Virus record (IMG/VR): IMGVR_UViG_2909303794_000008
From: a virus
Taxonomy: Duplodnaviria > Heunggongvirae > Uroviricota > Caudoviricetes
DNA: 38,381 bases
Reading direction: 5' to 3' (one strand)
The notes beneath the pieces are model-generated. The model saw only the letters and a list, made by a program, of their open reading frames with translations, was not told the origin of the DNA and made no database searches. Shown here piece after piece: positions 4,748 to 29,221 of this stretch (position 1 is its first letter; each line of letters starts with the position of its first letter). The position numbers and the translations under genes were made by a program.

Positions 4748-7700
4748 GCGTCGTATCCCCCCTGATCGCTGTAGTTACTCCTGGCCTTTGCCTTCAGCCT
4801 GCGTTCACGTTCATCAAGCTGGCGGGCCACCTCCCGCGCAATATCCTGCGCACTTTGTCCTGGCTGCGTCTGGATGATGATCTGCGTCGGTGCCTCAATC
4901 CTGTAAACGGGCGGCACAGTGGCTGCGCGACTCACAATTGCTTCTCCACCTTTCGCGGGAAGTGCCAAAGGGTGCAACGGTGGAAGCTCTGCTGGCGCGG
5001 CAGCAACTCCCATCATTCCGGTAACAACGGCAGCCAGTGCAGCTGTATTTCTCCGGCTGGTCACATTTGCCGGGCCGTTAACAATTTCCGGCCCGTTTTC
5101 ACCGACGATGCCAAACTGCCCGCGCGGGATATACCCGCCGCTGTCATACATCCCCGCAAAGCCATATCCCCATGATGGAAAACCACCCGATGGCATCATC
5201 ACTTTACCGTCTGCATTCACCGTCGCAGGTTGCTGACGCGTCACGCTTTCCGGCAGTTTTGCCTTTGCGGCCTCTTTACTGACAATGCCGAGCTTCTCCA
5301 GCAACCAGGAAACGCCGGATTTCAGGGAGTCCAGCGGATGCATGACCATATTTAGCCCTTCCGCCAGTGCCTCCCCGAATCGTCGCCCCATTGCCGCTGC
5401 ACTCTGCAGTTCGGCAGAGGTCGACTTAACGGGCGTCAGCAGATCAGTAAACCAGCCCCACAGCGCCTGTACTTTGTCGCCAATCCACTGGAACACGGGC
5501 TTAAGCGGTTCGAATGCTTCACTGACGGGACCTGCCGCCGCTTTGAATCCTTCCACCACGCCACCAAGAAATGCGGTGATGGGTTGCCAGTATTTCCAGA
5601 CAACCAGCGCCACGCCCGCCAGTGCAGTAACCACAAGACCTATCGGACTGAGCAGAGCACCTATCAGACCAGATACGGCATACAGGGCAACGCGCAGCAT
5701 CGCCAGTGGACCAGATGCCAGTACTCGCAGCACCGTGCCTGCGGCGGCCAGTCCACCGCGCAGTACCGCCAGAGGATTCATAAACATCACAGCAACAGCA
5801 CGTAAACCGGATAATCCAGACCGCAAAAGTGCAACCGGCGCACCTGCTACAGTTTTCAGGACATTTCCCGTCAGTAATGCCGTGCGGCGCAAAGACGACA
5901 ACGGCGCAGTAAGTAAACCTGCGGCGTTGCCCGATGAAGCAAGCCCGCGTCGCAGCAGTGCCAGTGGTGCGCCAGCCAGCCAGGACAACGCGCTGCTGGT
6001 TCGGGTTACTGCTGCCGTAACGGAAGGTAACGTTTTGATACCCAGCACAGAGAATCCCAGACGAATCACTGCCAGCGGCCCCAGCACTGCAGCCAGCGCC
6101 ACCGCTAAGGTTCCGAGGCCTACGGTAACCGCAGCCACCACAGCGGCTACTTTCATCAGTGTGCCTGTCAGTTCCGGGTTAGCTTCCACCCAGCGGCGCA
6201 ACGCCCCCGTGATGCTTTTCACCGTGTACAGAATATCCATCAGCGGCTGGCGCAGCGTTTCGCCCAGGCTGCTGAAGGTGTTCTGCGCTCCGGTTTTGAC
6301 CAGCAACCACTGCGCAGAAAGTGAGTCCTTGTTAATGTCGGATTCTTTCTGCATGGAGCCGAGCGCATCATTGCCCGCTGTCAGTTTTAGCTGGCGCTGC
6401 AGTTCCGGCAGGTTGTTTGCCAGTTTCGCCGCGTCATCGCCAAACTCTTTACCAAACAACATGGTCATGGCAGACAGACGTTTATCCTGCGGCAGTGCGT
6501 TCACCTTCTCCAGTACGCGCTGGATAGTTCCCATCGCATCCTTCGTCATCTGCTTTTCAATCACTTCAGGATTGAGTTTCAGCAGATTCATCCCTTCAAA
6601 GAAACTCTTGCTTTGCATGGTGGCAATGGACAATTCACGCACCATCGCGTTTGCTGCACTGGCTGCAACCTCTGGCGCAGCGCCCAGTGTCAGAAAGGTG
6701 GAACCCAGCGCCGCCGCTTTACGATAATCCAGACGATCAGCCACACCGCCCAGGCGTTGCATGACATCAATGATGTCTGCCCCTTTCGACATGGCGTTAT
6801 CATCCAGATAGTTCAGCGCATCACCGAGCTGTTCAATATTGCGGGTAGGAATTTTGTAGAGCTGGGCGATTTTCCCCAGACTTTCTGACAGTTCATCCGC
6901 TGGCAGCTCAAAGGCTGTTGCCGCCTTTGCTGCCGTACTGGCGAAGGCCAGCAGGTCACGTTTCTGGTCCTCCCAGCTGTCGTCAGGGTTTGCGACGTTC
7001 ATGCGCGCCCCACCTTCAACCAGTGCAGCGAAATCCACCGCACCGTTTTCCATCGGCAACTGTTCGCTGGCAGCCTTGATGGCATCCTGCATTTCATAAA
7101 AACGTGCAGTGCGGTTGCCATTATCGTCACGCAGACCATTGACCTGCTTTGCCACACCTTTCATGGCATCTTCCATGCTGGTATAGCTTTTTACTGCCGC
7201 CATCACTGGTGCGCCCATTGCCAGCCCTGCAGCCGTGGTGGTGGCTCCGGCACCTGCAATACGATCACGCACCTCCAGCGAACGGGCATAACTGGCACGC
7301 GCTGCATTCATCCTGCGCTGAGCTTCCCCCAGTCGCTTCAGCCGCGCCTCCTGTTTCGAAAGTTCCTGGTTATAACGTGATGTTTCACGGGCTAAACGGG
7401 CAGTTGCTCCCGCATCATCTTTCGCAGAAATTCCCGCCCGGTACAGTTCAGCACGCACAAGCGCCGTTTGCTTCTGCAAATATTTTTGTTGTTCTTCCAG
7501 GCGTTGGACTGCCAGCGTTTGCCGACCTAAAGCCACAAGATGCCTTTGTGATGGTTGCTCCATCGCCTCCAGCTCAGAGCTAAGCAAATTAGCCTTCTGT
7601 CTGGCATAGTTCAGCCTGTCGCCTAACTTCTTGTTATCAGCCTGCAGCTTGCGAAATTTTTCCAGGCTGTTACCCACCTGATTGAGTTGCTTTAATGCGT

Positions 7701-22109: not shown

Positions 22110-23876
22110 ATGAACACCACACTGACACCCGCAGATCTCGATCCCCGTCGGCAGGCCATGCTGCTGTACTTTCAGGGATACCGCGTAGCCCGCATTGCTG
22201 AAATGCTGGGCGAGAAAGTTGCAACCGTTCACAGCTGGAAAAAACGCGACAAGTGGGGTGACTATGGGCCGCTGGATCAGATGCAGCTCACCACCGCCGC
22301 ACGCTACTGCCAGCTCATTATGAAGGAGCACAAAGAAGGGAAAGATTTCAAAGAGATTGACCTGCTGGCGCGCCAGTCGGAGCGCCATGCGCGGATCGGC
22401 AAGTTTAACAATGGCGGCAACGAAGCCGACTTAAACCCTAACGTCGCCAACCGCAACAAAGGCCCGCGCCGTCAGCCGGAAAAGAACGTTTTCACCGATG
22501 AACAGATTGAGAAGCTGGAAGAAATCTTCCATTCCTCCATGTTCAACTACCAGCGCCACTGGTGGGAAGCCGGAAAAACCAACCGCATCCGCAACCTGCT
22601 GAAGTCACGCCAGATCGGCGCGACCTTCTATTTTGCCCGTGAAGCCCTGATTGACGCCCTGCTAACCGGGCGTAACCAGATTTTCCTTTCCGCCAGCAAG
22701 GCTCAGGCCCACGTCTTTAAGCAGTACATCATCGACTTCGCCAAAGAAGTGGAGGTGGAGCTGAAAGGCGATCCGATGGTGCTTCCTAACGGGGCCACGC
22801 TGTACTTCCTCGGCACCAATGCCCGCACGGCCCAGAGTTACCACGGCAACCTGTATCTGGATGAATATTTCTGGATACCGAAATTCCAGGAGCTGCGCAA
22901 AGTGGCTTCCGGTATGGCTATTCACAAAAAATGGCGACAAACCTATTTTTCCACGCCATCCAGCCTGACACACAGTGCTTATCCGTTCTGGTCCGGTGCG
23001 CTGTTCAACCGAGGGCGCAACAAAGCCGATAAGGTGGACATCGACCTGTCCCACAGCAATCTGGCCCCCGGCCTGCTGTGCGCAGACGGACAGTACCGCC
23101 AGATAGTCACTGTGGAAGATGCGGTGCGCGGCGGCTGTAACCTGTTCGACCTCGACCAGTTGCGCATGGAGTACAGCCCGGACGAATACCAGAACCTGCT
23201 GATGTGTGAGTTCGTGGACGATCTCGCGTCTGTGTTCCCACTCAGCGAGCTGCAGGCGTGCATGGTGGACAGTTGGGAAGTCTGGACCGACTTTCATGCA
23301 CTGGCCCTGCGCCCGTTTGGCTGGCGCGAAGTGTGGATCGGGTATGACCCGGCGAAAGGTACGCAGAACGGCGACAGCGCCGGATGCGTGGTGGTGGCGC
23401 CGCCAGCCGTGCCGGGCGGTAAGTTCCGCATTCTTGAGCGTCACCAGTGGCGCGGAATGGACTTCCGCGCCCAGGCTGACGCCATCAAAAAACTGACCGA
23501 ACAGTACAACGTGACCTATATCGGTATCGACTCAACCGGCGTTGGTCACGGGGTTTACGAGAACGTGAAAGCGTTTTTTCCTGCCGTCCGGGAGTTTGTC
23601 TACAACCCCAACGTTAAAAACGCCCTGGTACTCAAGGCCTACGACATTATCAGCCACCGCCGTCTGGAGTTTGACGCCGGACACACCGACATTGCGCAGT
23701 CATTCATGGCAATCCGTCGCGCAACCACCGCCAGTGGCAACCGCCCAACCTATGAAGCCAGCCGCAGCGAAGAAGCCAGCCACGCCGATCTGGCCTGGGC
23801 AACGATGCACGCACTGTTTAACGAACCGCTGCAGGGCGAGTCCGCCAATACCAGCAATATTGTGGAGATTTTTTGA
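22110..23876 (+). CDS. P: terminase large (ATPase) subunit P
   Basis: 588 aa, ATG at 22110; P2 gpP-like. Confidence 0.9.
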   Translation: MNTTLTPADLDPRRQAMLLYFQGYRVARIAEMLGEKVATVHSWKKRDKWGDYGPLDQMQLTTAARYCQLIMKEHKEGKDFKEIDLLARQSERHARIGKFNNGGNEADLNPNVANRNKGPRRQPEKNVFTDEQIEKLEEIFHSSMFNYQRHWWEAGKTNRIRNLLKSRQIGATFYFAREALIDALLTGRNQIFLSASKAQAHVFKQYIIDFAKEVEVELKGDPMVLPNGATLYFLGTNARTAQSYHGNLYLDEYFWIPKFQELRKVASGMAIHKKWRQTYFSTPSSLTHSAYPFWSGALFNRGRNKADKVDIDLSHSNLAPGLLCADGQYRQIVTVEDAVRGGCNLFDLDQLRMEYSPDEYQNLLMCEFVDDLASVFPLSELQACMVDSWEVWTDFHALALRPFGWREVWIGYDPAKGTQNGDSAGCVVVAPPAVPGGKFRILERHQWRGMDFRAQADAIKKLTEQYNVTYIGIDSTGVGHGVYENVKAFFPAVREFVYNPNVKNALVLKAYDIISHRRLEFDAGHTDIAQSFMAIRRATTASGNRPTYEASRSEEASHADLAWATMHALFNEPLQGESANTSNIVEIF

Positions 23877-24901
23877 TGGGAAAGAGTAAGAAAAACCGCA
23901 CTGCGGCGACGAATCAGATCCAGCATAAAAGCCAGACTTCAGCCGAAGCATTCAGCTTCGGTGATCCCGTTCCTGTACTTGACCGCCGCGAACTGCTGGA
24001 CTATGTGCAATGCGTACAGACAGATCGCTGGTATGAGCCGCCAGTGAGTTTCGACGGTCTGGCTCGCACCTTCCGCGCCGCCGTGCATCACAGTTCCCCG
24101 ATTGCAGTAAAGTGCAACATTCTGACCAGTACCTATATCCCTCATCCTCTGCTCAGCCAGCAGGCTTTTTCGCGTTTTGTGCAGGACTATCTGGTATTTG
24201 GCAACGCCTATCTGGAGAAACGCACGAACCGCTTCGGTGAAGTGATCGCCCTTGAACCTGCGCTGGCAAAATACACCCGACGCGGATTAGACCTGGATAC
24301 CTACTGGTTTGTGCAATACGGTATGACAACCCAGCCGTATCAGTTCACGAAAGGCAGCATCTTTCATCTGATGGAACCGGACATCAACCAGGAGATCTAC
24401 GGCCTGCCCGGTTATCTTTCTGCCATTCCGTCAGCCCTGCTCAACGAGTCCGCCACGCTGTTCCGCCGAAAGTATTACATTAACGGCAGTCATGCTGGCT
24501 TCATCATGTACATGACCGATGCTGCGCAGAACCAGGAGGATGTGAACAACCTCCGCAACGCAATGAAAAGCGCCAAAGGTCCAGGCAACTTCCGCAACCT
24601 GTTTATGTACTCACCTAACGGCAAAAAGGATGGTCTTCAGATTATCCCGTTGTCAGAAGTCGCGGCAAAGGATGAATTTCTGAACATCAAGAACGTGAGC
24701 CGGGATGACATGATGGCGGCACACCGCGTGCCTCCACAAATGATGGGTATCATGCCGAATAATGTTGGCGGGTTTGGGGATGTGGAGAAGGCATCCACGG
24801 TTTTTGTACGTAATGAATTAAAGCCTCTTCAACAACGAATTAGAGAGGTGAACAATTGGCTACATGATGACGTAATAAAATTCCAAGATTACTCCTTGTA
24901 A
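23876..24901 (+). CDS. Q: portal protein Q
   Basis: ATG at 23876 overlaps the P stop (TGATG); the track start 23873 is TTG; P2 gpQ-like. Confidence 0.9.
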   Translation: MGKSKKNRTAATNQIQHKSQTSAEAFSFGDPVPVLDRRELLDYVQCVQTDRWYEPPVSFDGLARTFRAAVHHSSPIAVKCNILTSTYIPHPLLSQQAFSRFVQDYLVFGNAYLEKRTNRFGEVIALEPALAKYTRRGLDLDTYWFVQYGMTTQPYQFTKGSIFHLMEPDINQEIYGLPGYLSAIPSALLNESATLFRRKYYINGSHAGFIMYMTDAAQNQEDVNNLRNAMKSAKGPGNFRNLFMYSPNGKKDGLQIIPLSEVAAKDEFLNIKNVSRDDMMAAHRVPPQMMGIMPNNVGGFGDVEKASTVFVRNELKPLQQRIREVNNWLHDDVIKFQDYSL

Positions 24902-24904
24902 TTA

Positions 24905-24942
24905 AAGCCTCTTCTTTAGAAACCCATCCAAAGAAGAGGCTT
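24905..24942. terminator. 13-bp perfect inverted repeat between convergent Q and NTase genes (bidirectional terminator-like hairpin)
   Basis: aagcctcttcttt(24905-24917)/aaagaagaggctt(24930-24942), 12-nt loop; no clear U-tract. Confidence 0.4.
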
Positions 24943-24953
24943 ATTGCCACCCG

Positions 24954-25271
24954 TTATATACCACATACAAAATTGATCTTAACGCTTTTATCAACAACAA
25001 GCAGAGAAGTGCCAACAGACTTAATAAATCCCAGTTCATACTCTTCTGAATGCGTCATTGTAATAATATGAACAGGAACAAATAAATCAAGCTCCCGCAG
25101 CTTTCGCTTCAATAATAAACCATCGACACAATCACCTATCACAAGCATATCAATATCATTTGCATCGCAAAAACTCTTTAATGCTGACCCAAATACATAT
25201 ACATCCACCATATATAAACTATGATGGATAATAACATCACAGATCGATTCAATCGTATGTTTAAAATTCAC
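24954..25271 (-). CDS. minimal nucleotidyltransferase (Pol-beta superfamily, MNT-like)
   Basis: 105 aa with the GS-X9-DID motif (VYVFGSALKSFCDANDIDMLVIG); GTG start overlapping the upstream TAG stop by 1 nt; AT-rich. Confidence 0.6.
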   Translation of the reverse strand: MNFKHTIESICDVIIHHSLYMVDVYVFGSALKSFCDANDIDMLVIGDCVDGLLLKRKLRELDLFVPVHIITMTHSEEYELGFIKSVGTSLLVVDKSVKINFVCGI

Positions 25272-25930
25272 TACCGTGAAATTCTTCGTAATAAATCACC
25301 CAACTTGTAAAGCTCCACCCCGATACTTTGAGCAGCCTCTTTTGCCTGAGTCGTCAATCGTCCATTAGGATTGGAGGAAAAAACAACATCACAATTGCCA
25401 TGCAACCCTATCGCATCTCTTACAGAACCCGCTGTCATATCATAATCATTCGCAGCGATAATAACTAAGTCCGCCAAGCCACGTCTTTTAAGTCTATATT
25501 TTTTGTTGGTTTCTCGCTCTACAGAGCTTACATGTGAATGTTGATTGAACACTCTATTTATAAACAAATGCTCTTTATCAAGATGCTCAAGCGGATTATT
25601 AGCTCTTAAAGAAGATGCAATATGCCCAAATGAACCCACTCCTATTTTCTTTTGTTCTAGTAATCTCATTGCATCACCAGAGATAAATTCAACACCTCCC
25701 TTGACTGATAGAAAATCAATTTTTTTATTGTCTAGGTATTCATTTATCTCAGGACATGTTATCCGGCCAGTATTGATTGCCCCGATCAAATAGGTGTCAC
25801 CCTGTGTAGTATTAATCACTAAAGTACCATCACCTATCACCTCTATATTTTCGACACATTTATTTTCTTGTAATTTTCCTGCCATCCATGAAATATAGCC
25901 TTCACTCGCATTTATGCTCATTGGATTCAT
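25271..25930 (-). CDS. hypothetical protein, middle gene of three-gene cargo operon
   Basis: 219 aa; ATGA overlap with the upstream gene and 1-nt overlap with the downstream gene; no domain recognised with confidence (weak Rx6H HEPN-like motif RANNPLEH). Confidence 0.5.
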   Translation of the reverse strand: MNPMSINASEGYISWMAGKLQENKCVENIEVIGDGTLVINTTQGDTYLIGAINTGRITCPEINEYLDNKKIDFLSVKGGVEFISGDAMRLLEQKKIGVGSFGHIASSLRANNPLEHLDKEHLFINRVFNQHSHVSSVERETNKKYRLKRRGLADLVIIAANDYDMTAGSVRDAIGLHGNCDVVFSSNPNGRLTTQAKEAAQSIGVELYKLGDLLRRISR

Positions 25931-26622
25931 CCTATAAATAGTTCAGATGCAGCTTCTGGAAACCTACTACCATTAGCATCGGTTAAGCCCAAATGTTTTG
26001 ATTCAAAGTCATCTATATGAACACAAAGCTTTGAAAAAACATTCTTCTCATCTTCACTCATGAGGTGATAGTTTTGTTCAACCAGTCGCTGTACTTTTCT
26101 ATTGTTGGGTAAGATATGAGATTGTACTTTTCTTAACCATACTTCTGCATTTGGATTTTCAGGGTCAACGCTGTTCTCTTGGGTTGGTCCATATGTTACA
26201 AAAATGGTATTGTTTTCTCTGAAGTATTTTTCTAACTCCTGTCTAACAGATTCTCGATTGTCATATGTTTTAACACCAAAGGTTGCATTTATTTTATCAA
26301 TATGGCCGTTTTTCCAAGAACGGATAATTTCATCAGTAAAATGTTCCTCTGCCTTATCAATTGTCGTATGGCAATTAGCACATAGAAGAATAATGTTGTC
26401 AAAATGACCTCTCTGCTCATCAGTTAGATCAGCATTGGTTCTAGGTCCATTATCAATGGCACTAAAAATGTGAGCAAGTTCTCCAATTGTTATATTTTTG
26501 TCGCCAGCATCAACAAACAAAGGTTGCAAACATTGTGGATTTTGGCAAAAGCCACCTGAGCTGGCAAAAAGCCGTCTAACTGTATTAGCGTTTGGAGAAG
26601 CTTTTCCCCTACTGCAAGCCAT
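25927..26622 (-). CDS. HNH endonuclease-domain protein
   Basis: 231 aa; CQNPQC...GELAHI...N...LLCANCH (HNH with zinc-binding cysteines); ATG at 26622 with AAGG SD. Confidence 0.65.
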   Translation of the reverse strand: MACSRGKASPNANTVRRLFASSGGFCQNPQCLQPLFVDAGDKNITIGELAHIFSAIDNGPRTNADLTDEQRGHFDNIILLCANCHTTIDKAEEHFTDEIIRSWKNGHIDKINATFGVKTYDNRESVRQELEKYFRENNTIFVTYGPTQENSVDPENPNAEVWLRKVQSHILPNNRKVQRLVEQNYHLMSEDEKNVFSKLCVHIDDFESKHLGLTDANGSRFPEAASELFIG

Positions 26623-26710
26623 GAACTAACCTTAAAAGTATAGAAATTAGGATGTTAATTTATTACTGAACAACCCTATAAGCAAGCTTGCTAATTGTGG
26701 TGAGCGCGCG

Positions 26711-26729
26711 CTCGTATCCCCGCCACGCC
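26711..26729 (-). other. putative cos (cohesive-end) site
   Basis: minus strand reads GGCGTGGCGGGGATACGAG followed by CGCGCGCTCAC; the first 13 nt match the P2/186 cohesive end as I recall it (GGCG[A/T]GGCGGGGAAAGCA[C/T]); lies in the intergenic gap between the two cargo clusters. Confidence 0.35.
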
Positions 26730-26914
26730 TGCCCGCTTTATGTAGCGGTTTTCATGCAGGCGCATGATCTACGCAAAATCCCACCAGTTCTGGCGTGCCT
26801 TAGCAAAAACGATCCGCAAACGATCATGCGATCTCATGCGGCATAGTCATGCACTTACGGGGGAAGTGAAATCCCGTAACCGAATGACCGCTTGAAAAAC
26901 AAAACTCTCGTTTT

Positions 26915-26949
26915 TATAAAGCACAAAGTCCGCTTTGAGCAAAGCGGAC
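26915..26949 (-). terminator. rho-independent terminator downstream of the KAP NTPase gene
   Basis: stem gtccgcttt(26928-26936)/aaagcggac(26941-26949) followed on the minus strand by TTTGTGCTTTAT. Confidence 0.5.
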
Positions 26950-27014
26950 GTTAATAATTTTACTGACTATCCCTAGTACTTCTAATAATATTGCCTATGT
27001 TAATCAACAAAAAG

Positions 27015-28907
27015 TTAATCAGTTCCCTCAGTAAAGAATTTGATTGCGCTAGTTAGTACATAGTCAATAAAAAACTTTACGTGAAAAACCTGAAAGGAGT
27101 TATTGGCTGCGTTTTGAGTGAAATCTACAGCTATCTCTTTTAGGTTAATCAACCAGTTGTATTCTTCGGTCAGTCTGGTTCTAGCATCCCCATCAGAATA
27201 ACGATTCCGCAAGCTAAATGCCAGTTTCCTCATGAGGACTGGGTCAAGTTTCCTATAGCTTTCAATGAAAACTTCAGGAGGAACCAAGTGTAAAAAAGGC
27301 ACGTTATGAAGATTTAACTGCCTATTATTAGAATGACTCAATTCAGATACAAACGATAAGTTTCCCCTTTGCAACTCATCGCTGAACTGCAACGCAAATT
27401 CCGGAATTGATTCATCAAACCGTTTCTTCTTCGCTATCTCAATATGCTCAATAATGAGTTTGAATTCATCGCTATCCCTGTCAAGAAAACCAAAGCCACG
27501 CCATGCCCTTAATTCGTTATAATGCGTTTGCGCATATTCCTTATGTATATCTTCAGCTCTAAGTCTATTATAATAATTATTTATATTCTGTTTTGTCTCA
27601 TTTATGAGATCATGAACATCATCTGTTGTTAGACCTTCTTTCGCCATGTCCAGCAAAATACTCGCGGTCATCAGGAGTTCACCTAAGGAAGTGATCTTAC
27701 CTGAAAATAGATTATCCTTGGCAATGGCGTACTGCTCATTAAGCATAGTTTCATTAAGTTCTCGATAGTTCCACAAATACTCCCATGCTTGGGCATCGGT
27801 GCTTCTAAAAAATCGCGTAATATCCAACTGAGCGAGAAGTTCACTCGTTACCTTTCCATCACAGATTAGCTCCCTCCAGTACGCACCATCCAGTAACTTC
27901 TCGGTTAATACAGGAGATGAATATTTCTCGACGATCATGTCATACTTAGTTTTGGTACGCTCTTTACCTAAAAACATACCATAATTAACATTGCTGATTG
28001 AATCGAAATCCTCGTAGTTAAGGTTCCCTCCCCGGTACTCTATCGAGAAAATTAACAACTGCTGGAAAAATACCCTCATAAAATCGTCGTTGCTGACATA
28101 TTTATTTCCCAAAAGGGAAATGATGCGTTGTACATCAAGAAAGAACTGCCTCAAGTGTCTTAGATTATTATATTTCGCCGACACATAGATGTCTTCTATG
28201 GCCTGCATATCTTCTTTAAATATATTAGCAACGTGTAAACTGCTAATTACGCCCAAAAAAACATTACAAGCACTATGTAAATCTGACGTTACTTCAAATG
28301 TTTTACCAACAAGCTTTTCTTTTGTTCTCATGTATTCGCTGCTAGATTTCTCGTCATCATTATTTATTCGCTTTTCTCTATTGATTATTTCTTCTTCATT
28401 GGCAACCAAGATCGCTTTGTATCCGTTTACTTCTACAAAGTGGTTTATATATCCAAATAAAATTGGTAAATCTATACCAGCTCTCTCGATATCATCAAAG
28501 ACCAGCACAAAACCATCTGGTTTTCTACTAAAATCGTTAAGATTAATGGTGGGAACATTGGTATTGACATCAACGTCAGATTTATTATCGCCATTGAGAT
28601 CGATCTTGAAAGTAGCCTTAAGCGTATTTTTTAGTACATTTGCACCAAAGATAAGGGCTTTGTTTGATAGGACAGGATGAAGTTGACGATAGAACTCATC
28701 TTCAATCTGCTTAATAGAGTTGACGCCATACAAACTCACTTTTAGAAATTTAAACTCTGAATTCTTCTGCTTATATTCTTCAAGAACTTGTTCAATGAAC
28801 CAAGTTTTACCTGATCCCCAAGCACCTTTAAGCATAATGGCGTATTGAGGTTCAGTTGTAAGGCTAAGGTAATATTCTATATAGTCTTTGATGTACGTAT
28901 TGTTCAT
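27015..28907 (-). CDS. KAP-family P-loop NTPase
   Basis: Walker A GAWGSGKT near the N-terminus and Walker B-like VLVFDDIER about 100 aa later; start set to ATG 28907 (the track start 28958 is TTG); AT-rich. Confidence 0.7.
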   Translation of the reverse strand: MNNTYIKDYIEYYLSLTTEPQYAIMLKGAWGSGKTWFIEQVLEEYKQKNSEFKFLKVSLYGVNSIKQIEDEFYRQLHPVLSNKALIFGANVLKNTLKATFKIDLNGDNKSDVDVNTNVPTINLNDFSRKPDGFVLVFDDIERAGIDLPILFGYINHFVEVNGYKAILVANEEEIINREKRINNDDEKSSSEYMRTKEKLVGKTFEVTSDLHSACNVFLGVISSLHVANIFKEDMQAIEDIYVSAKYNNLRHLRQFFLDVQRIISLLGNKYVSNDDFMRVFFQQLLIFSIEYRGGNLNYEDFDSISNVNYGMFLGKERTKTKYDMIVEKYSSPVLTEKLLDGAYWRELICDGKVTSELLAQLDITRFFRSTDAQAWEYLWNYRELNETMLNEQYAIAKDNLFSGKITSLGELLMTASILLDMAKEGLTTDDVHDLINETKQNINNYYNRLRAEDIHKEYAQTHYNELRAWRGFGFLDRDSDEFKLIIEHIEIAKKKRFDESIPEFALQFSDELQRGNLSFVSELSHSNNRQLNLHNVPFLHLVPPEVFIESYRKLDPVLMRKLAFSLRNRYSDGDARTRLTEEYNWLINLKEIAVDFTQNAANNSFQVFHVKFFIDYVLTSAIKFFTEGTD

Positions 28908-29221
28908 TTTTAGTCCATTTTGATAAAATACATAAACATAGATGGTAAGTAGAGCCAAAGGCCAACTATGGAAAATTCAATCGGTAGTGTACATTGTAAG
29001 GTTATTATTAGTAAATTTTATAGAAATGCCCATAATCTTACAAAATTCAGATTATCCGTTGCGAATTAGTCTGCCATTCGTTAATTAACGAAAGTTAGCA
29101 GAAGAAACGTTTGCATCTTGCACAAAGCAGACGATCATTTATCAAAATGACCTTACACCTTATTTCACTCGTTGCCCAAACTAGCCCCCATCAGAATGAA
29201 TCCTCCTGGGGGCAACGTTTC

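Follow-up and report, generated by a model that had tools for sequence, protein, structure and literature searches.

A probable bidirectional terminator hairpin between the portal gene and a convergent cargo operon of a P2-like prophage

The window, as we call the whole 38,381-nt stretch of DNA analysed here, is a P2-like (Peduoviridae) prophage of E. coli. In the short gap where its late P-Q operon meets a convergent cargo operon lies a strong hairpin, and the explanation that we favour, and consider likely, is that this stem-loop folds in the nascent RNA of both strands and ends or stabilises the transcript in either direction, in other words that it is a bidirectional intrinsic-type terminator. 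It would then be an ordinary element of the terminator type, previously unannotated and of the kind expected between convergent operons, and at the same time a new sequence variant at a position where phage P2 already has an annotated terminator. Strong hairpins recur at this very position in related phages, and the hairpin of the window accompanies its cargo operon into other mobile elements.

Structure and setting of the hairpin

The two arms of the hairpin, at 24905-24917 (AAGCCTCTTCTTT) and 24930-24942 (AAAGAAGAGGCTT), form a perfect 13-bp inverted repeat around a 12-nt loop at 24918-24929, the whole reading AAGCCTCTTCTTT-AGAAACCCATCC-AAAGAAGAGGCTT. The left arm can be followed to 24920 with one mismatch in the Q sense or a G-U pair in the cargo sense; the arms then lengthen to 16 nt at 94% complementarity, and the loop shrinks to 6 nt (24921-24926) once the two to three extra pairs form. 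The repeat takes up 38 nt of the 52-nt gap (24902-24953), starting 3 nt past the Q stop and ending 11 nt from the stop of the convergent 105-aa gene. An earlier, sequence-only reading of this DNA had described a perfect 13-bp repeat that fills most of the gap between the stops at 24901 and 24954, and it was exact on both counts. A chance origin of the repeat is ruled out by 200 dinucleotide-preserving shuffles, from which 0.005 repeats of 13 bp and 0.04 of 12 bp are expected per window, and the 38,381 nt hold no second perfect inverted repeat of at least 10 bp with a loop of 3-15 nt. The calculation of folding energy, which the same reading had proposed as a check, gave −19.1 kcal/mol for the + strand (Q sense) and −24.3 kcal/mol for the − strand (cargo sense), where the stem reaches 16 bp through G-U pairs; at a z-score of about −6, the fold was not equalled by any of 200 shuffles. 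With a stem of 13-16 bp that includes 5 G-C pairs, the element has the stable, G-C-containing stem-loop of an intrinsic terminator, and on both strands it directly follows the final gene of an operon. It also has the layout of a bidirectional terminator, namely one hairpin in a 52-nt convergent gap, flanked by the A-rich TAATTAAA on the 5' side and the U-rich TTATTGCC on the 3' side. A covariance-model search of positions 24600-27100 against Rfam (E ≤ 1) returned no relevant match.

The U-tracts on the two sides are short and interrupted (UUAUUG and UUUAAUU), and a simple consensus terminator scan did not flag the site. To this extent, but only in part, the earlier statement that the hairpin lacks a U-tract is right. 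However, when the tails are counted past the G-C-closed core, that is, after opening the two closing A-U pairs, they read UUAUUGCC in the Q sense (24941-24948, + strand, TTATTGCC in DNA; 4 U of 8) and UUUAAUUA in the cargo sense (24899-24906, − strand; 5 U of 8), the latter overlapping the Q stop codon and being kept in most copies of the cassette described below. Their tail scores, computed with a T-weighted decay score from the terminator-prediction literature, are −2.54 and −2.89. Both beat the median of the hairpins found downstream of Q in related phages, ranking 20th (Q sense) and 15th (cargo sense) among 52 comparable junction hairpins. Judged by these sequence comparisons, the absence of a U-tract was overstated, and interrupted tracts are typical of the hairpins at Q junctions.

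On the left, the late operon comprises the gene for the terminase ATPase subunit (P2 P; 22110-23876, + strand, RefSeq annotation) and, as its last gene, portal gene Q (23873-24901, + strand, with the TAA stop at 24899-24901). The product of the latter matches Pfam Phage_portal at 4.6e-17 and is annotated as 'phage portal protein' in RefSeq, which confirms the Q gene of the earlier reading, ending at 24901, as a P2-type portal gene. On the right lies the cargo operon (24954-26622, − strand; G+C about 0.35), made up of three overlapping or abutting ORFs. Transcribed first is the gene for a 231-aa HNH nuclease (25927-26622, − strand; PADLOC PDC-M68A, 2e-29), the N-terminal domain of which resembles CBASS/SAVED-HNH effectors. 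It is followed by the gene for a 219-aa protein (25271-25930, − strand) without a family match in Pfam, PADLOC or PHROGs, and by that for a 105-aa NTase-like protein (24954-25271, − strand), whose nucleotidyltransferase matches are sub-threshold (Polbeta, 18.5 bits against a cut-off of 26.9; NTP_transf_2, 16.9 against 21). A convergent gene does stop at 24954, as had been noted, but its label 'NTase' goes further than either Pfam score does. The operon, so far uncharacterised, is a candidate defence system and presumably expressed in the lysogen; a literature search found no paper mentioning PDC-M68.

The cargo is followed by a conserved cos-region block (26703-26855) that is common to P2-like phages, including Fels-2, SopEPhi and Klebsiella and Yersinia phages. 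It contains a cohesive-end-like core at about 26709-26731, the reverse complement of which, GGCGTGGCGGGGATACGAGCGCGC, resembles P2's GGCGAGGCGGGGAAAGCACTGCGCGC, although the core has more than 3 mismatches to either the P2 or the 186 ends. Given where this core lies, the three genes of the cargo stand between Q and cos. A cos site in the gap between Q and the NTase-like gene was considered and rejected, since searches with the P2 and 186 cohesive ends (up to 3 mismatches) gave no match and the cos-like core lies elsewhere. The gpA-gpQ interval around cos is a published defence hotspot of P2 (PMC9122126, PMC13586616); these two papers make no mention of terminators or hairpins. In the window, cargo is present on both sides of cos: beyond it, a second cargo gene encodes a 647-aa KAP-family P-loop NTPase (27015-28958, − strand; PADLOC PDC-S49, 4e-160) and has a canonical terminator of its own at 26928-26949 (− strand; GTCCGCTTTG-CTCA-AAGCGGAC, then a U-rich tail). 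ATCC 8739, which is 99.9% identical to the window in the hairpin region (strain LR-29-1 is 100% identical), is without the KAP gene and has a 678-bp hypothetical gene in its place.

Hairpins downstream of Q in related phages

In phage P2 itself, the first structure after the Q stop, 5 nt past it, is tQ (NC_001895, 160-181), annotated as 'putative rho-independent terminator for P operon' and reading GCCGCC-TGCG-GGCGGC-TTTTTT (GCCGCCTGCGGGCGGC-TTTTTT). The hairpin of the window is the positional equivalent of tQ, since it, too, follows the Q stop as the first structure and stands where the P-Q operon ends, and the presumed role of the two for + strand transcripts is the same. Homology by descent, on the other hand, was not found, the sequence of the window being unrelated to P2's GCCGCCTGCGGGCGGCTTTTTT. 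The two also differ in design and surroundings. In P2 tQ, a short stem rich in G+C precedes TTTTTT, cos lies behind it and there is no convergent gene, whereas the window has a longer, more A+T-rich stem, interrupted U-tracts and a convergent operon between Q and cos.

The same position is occupied by hairpins throughout the relatives of this prophage. Eighty viral contigs coding for portal proteins with 93-99% identity to that of the window yielded 57 distinct Q-downstream sequences, 84% of which have a single hairpin of −12 kcal/mol or stronger within 80 nt of the Q stop (class medians, −14.6 kcal/mol and 5 nt from the stop). Such a hairpin is present in 2-5% of coding controls taken 400 and 900 nt downstream and in 7% of dinucleotide shuffles of the same 80-mers, with medians of about −6 kcal/mol in either case, which amounts to a 12- to 40-fold enrichment of strong hairpins at the Q-stop position. 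In 54 of the 57 sequences, the sizeable ORF that comes next is convergent. The hairpins of this class are unrelated in sequence and share no motif, although many are of the bidirectional A-tract/stem/T-tract type, a plain example being AAGAAAAGCCACC-GTTT-GGTGGCTTTTCTT. In E. coli Ec1120, where the cargo is a TIR-domain protein, a GGCTGC-N9-GAGCC-type pairing (GGCTGC...GCAGCC) followed by TTTTTT stands at the same spot. In stability the hairpin of the window comes about tenth of the 57.

Peduoviridae prophages with other cargo thus have the arrangement seen in the window, that is, a Q stop, a hairpin about 5 nt further on and a convergent cargo gene, and their junction hairpins are similar to that of the window in stability and in tail quality. 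What distinguishes them is the sequence, each cargo variant having its own hairpin and the version of the window being found only with its three-gene cargo. An enrichment of this size across unrelated junctions suggests selection for a hairpin at this place and is hard to explain otherwise. The case for function stands mainly on this enrichment in the class, not on the one hairpin family represented by the window. Going by the sequences compared, the Q-proximal edge of the P2 hotspot is marked almost universally by a predicted terminator hairpin directly after Q.

Experimental work on E. coli offers a close parallel. A class of bidirectional terminators between convergent genes is reported to be prevalent there, to be unlike canonical intrinsic terminators and to need a stem-loop in the nascent RNA, which positions the head-on polymerase collisions proposed to drive termination (bioRxiv 10.1101/2022.10.23.513370). 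As summarised in that preprint, the bidirectional terminators of Ju et al. (2019) have, like the site in the window, one stem-loop in a short convergent gap with A-rich 5' and U-rich 3' flanks; that class, in the same summary, was defined by mapped overlapping transcript 3' ends, whereas the site in the window is known from its sequence.

In the reading that we favour, the stem-loop of the window would form in the RNA of both strands, at the 3' ends of their transcripts. There it would end and stabilise the late P-Q (terminase-portal) mRNA arriving from the left and, in the same way, the cargo mRNA (HNH, 219-aa and NTase-like genes) arriving from the right, and each operon would thereby be kept free of antisense transcription by the other. 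The weakness of the U-tracts means that the efficiency of termination may depend on help. Head-on polymerase collisions at the hairpin may assist, and Rho may serve as a backup by acting on read-through RNA. The + strand downstream of the hairpin would suit the latter role, as its RNA is untranslated and, with a GC skew of −0.29 to −0.45 between about 24900 and 25400, rich in C and poor in G. That the repeat probably acts as a two-way terminator insulating the structural operon from the cargo operon had been proposed in the sequence-only reading. This is still the best-supported interpretation, given the tQ position, the class of junction hairpins and the convergent gene. What the comparisons show is the fold, where it lies, how it recurs in the class and how it moves with the cargo; the stopping of transcription and its efficiency in each direction are what we infer from these features. 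If the element is a terminator, the cargo, which is probably a defence system, would be insulated from strong late transcription, and the late genes from cargo transcription in the lysogen; the hairpin would also be useful for setting transcript boundaries in P2-like prophages.

Co-transfer of the hairpin with the cargo operon

Comparison of the Q gene of the window with 69 related Q genes revealed nucleotide identity of about 0.9 up to about 24780, followed by 0.6-0.7 over the last ~40 codons. Megablast matches to other phages end between 24817 and 24906, and near 24800-24900 the G+C content drops from about 0.55 to about 0.35. The drop in identity from about 24782 onwards indicates that the variable module begins inside Q and that the hairpin lies within this module. 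As far as these alignments tell, each cargo brings its own Q tail.

Copies of the operon elsewhere were located through homologues of the 219-aa protein, and they fall into several settings. In five loci the operon adjoins Q and the hairpin is present (L004 from Enterobacter, L086, L088, L089 and L097). The portal gene of the first of these (Enterobacter sp. kpr-6, 5070-5741) matches only from residue 104; a 1-nt indel creates a premature stop 15 codons early, so this prophage is probably decaying. In nine further loci the hairpin is present without Q (L091-L093, L095, L096, L099, L100, L103 and L104). Two of them are from Cronobacter, with P22_Cro, YdaT and HTH_36 as neighbours (L095, L096), two are from Pantoea, adjoining an IS and Psu (L099, L100), and one Q-less locus adjoins tail-fibre and acyltransferase genes. 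The cassette that recurs in Q-less elements spans 24861-26783 (− strand) and consists of the three genes and the hairpin, with the final 41 nt of Q at one end and about 80 nt of the cos block at the other. Its identity to the window is 84-87% in the Q-less copies, and the cassette taken whole is 84-91% identical. Similarity ends at the same two points, 24861 and 26783, in four Q-less contexts (L091, L095, L099/L100 and L104; L096 shares them), and in L103 it runs from 24866 to the end of the contig. Identical end points, together with a stub of Q in elements that have no portal gene, suggest capture from a P2-like phage. The hairpin with its Q stub could serve as a marker for tracing the cassette into other mobile elements.

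The hairpin is not always retained. In two loci (L003 and L094) similarity reaches only to the stop of the NTase-like gene, and the operon is without the hairpin; in two others (L099 and L104) the stem has decayed to −6 to −8 kcal/mol. Such copies indicate that the hairpin is not indispensable to the cargo. Where more distantly related versions of the cargo adjoin Q, the hairpins are different ones; that of L102 is a canonical bidirectional terminator. Within E. coli, the 71-nt hairpin region is confined to the 13 of 5,426 complete genomes that have the same junction, and occurs once in each. Beyond the Q stub, the Q-less contexts share a conserved stretch with no called gene (L095, 3562-4000, with equivalents in L091, L099, L103 and L104). 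It is contiguous over ~100-240 nt, has a second block of ~185 nt in L099 and L104, and is continuous to ~440 nt in L103; the only ORFs in it are small, at 36-45 aa, and it gave no match in Rfam.

In the Q-less contexts the cargo-sense tail UUUAAUUA is kept (about −2.9), whereas the Q-sense tail is poor (about −1.4). This retention, along with the co-transfer, implies that the hairpin is primarily the 3' hairpin of the cargo operon. In the P2 context, as we read these comparisons, it would also serve Q, in place of P2's tQ. The same observations may be taken further, to a hairpin that works one way only, terminating and stabilising the mRNA of the cargo, with P-Q transcripts passing through it to be stopped further on, by Rho for instance. 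Such a division of labour would agree with the stronger fold and better tail in the cargo sense, with the movement of the element into contexts where there is no Q and where only the cargo-sense tail stays U-rich, and with the C-rich, untranslated + strand RNA past the hairpin. Yet the Q-sense tail of the window, UUAUUGCC, scores better than its counterparts in the Q-less contexts and better than the class median, and P2 and most of the relatives have a Q terminator at exactly this position. We therefore regard a strictly one-way hairpin as unlikely, and a bidirectional terminator supplied by the cargo as the better account.

Putting these observations together, it is possible, though the balance leans somewhat against so broad a statement, that the Q-to-cos accessory (defence-type) cassettes of this P2-like clade are portable units, each with its own bidirectional terminator and its own last 30-40 portal codons. 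Captured copies would keep the hairpin and the 41-nt Q stub as a record of transfer from a P2-like phage to another element, and a 15-nt repeat linking the hairpin to Q, described below, would be a scar of such exchanges or a substrate for them.

Sequence variation, other readings and the 15-nt repeat

The ten versions of the hairpin that could be aligned (alignment A2) have a mean column identity of 86%, no better than the 84-91% of the surrounding cassette. In this alignment 84% of cells form standard pairs, a share that reaches 65% at most with the partners slid. Significant covariation was not found in this cargo-family hairpin, in which three pairs have changed on both sides, as happened in 102 of 500 shuffles, and the covariation term of RNAalifold is slightly unfavourable (+0.79). 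At one position of the stem, however, 7 of the 10 sequences have a C·A mismatch, the window is paired U-A, and L004 and L097 are paired C-G, a pattern that is suggestive.

Could the hairpin be a relic without present function, left over from a micro-duplication or kept through recent inheritance only? The lack of significant covariation, the decayed or absent hairpins in some copies of the cassette and the left arm, which copies nearby Q coding sequence exactly, would fit a relic. The 12- to 40-fold enrichment of strong hairpins across the 57 unrelated junction sequences, however, is not readily accounted for by such an origin, which we consider very improbable.

Scarcely credible, in our view, is a DNA site for a dimeric protein, such as a cargo- or phage-encoded regulator; the sequence-only reading had named a protein-binding site as an alternative on seeing a repeat without a U-tract. 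A perfect 13-bp palindrome with a weak canonical U-run would fit such a site. But the repeat marks the 3' ends of both operons, not a promoter, and searches of the three cargo proteins revealed no DNA-binding domain. The window holds no further half-site, the sole other match having 2 mismatches and being within chance, and the palindrome occurs once per genome. In relatives the arms vary while pairing is largely kept, and the hairpins that related phages have at the same position are unrelated in sequence, which points to a structural role and not to a sequence-specific one. The usual traits of palindromic operators, that is, proximity to a promoter, frequent repetition and a conserved sequence, are likewise missing here, and the suggestion of a protein-binding site found no support.

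REP elements resemble the hairpin of the window in being extragenic palindromes at the 3' ends of operons, and REP palindromes can stabilise mRNA. The window hairpin differs from them in that it is not repetitive and has no REP consensus; an identity as a REP or other dispersed repeat was rejected, the element being present once in each of 13 out of 5,426 E. coli genomes and having no other copy in the window.

Hardly any credence, finally, can be given to a recombination structure at the DNA level (attC-like, a cruciform or a hot spot of replication slippage) that promotes cargo exchange at the cassette boundary: the site is at the edge of a hypervariable hotspot, hairpins recur there among its variants and a 15-nt direct repeat connects the left arm to Q, but the sequence turns from conserved to variable ~100 nt further upstream, within Q (~24782-24830), the cassette ends in other elements at 24861 or 24956 and never in the stem, the hairpins have no common motif and no recombinase gene is adjacent.

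The direct repeat just mentioned, AATTAAAGCCTCTTC, deserves a description of its own. One copy, at 24816-24830 on the + strand, lies in the coding sequence of Q, where it encodes E-L-K-P-L-Q; the second, at 24900-24914, takes in the final two bases of the stop codon together with the left hairpin arm. The copies are exact, in frame and 84 nt apart, which is far beyond chance. The codon choice for E-L-K-P-L-Q is unique to the lineage of the window among 80 loci, and relatives that carry this cargo agree between the two sites at 13, 11 and 9 positions of the 15. A tandemly duplicated unit of 84 nt was rejected as the origin, given that there is no similarity past the 15 nt and that the score of a local alignment was within that of shuffles. 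An antiterminator-like pairing of the Q copy (24821-24830) with the right arm was also rejected, RNAfold preferring the local hairpin. A role of this kind is unlikely because the underlying 15-nt match is not conserved, and in L088, as we read the sequences, the complementarity needed for the alternative pairing is lost. The stretch TAATTAAA that follows the stop is also present in the different module of Ec1120, and this part of the repeat may simply be the A-tract, a reading that does not cover the CCTCTTC part. Short-patch gene conversion or an old micro-duplication is a possible source of the 15-nt repeat.
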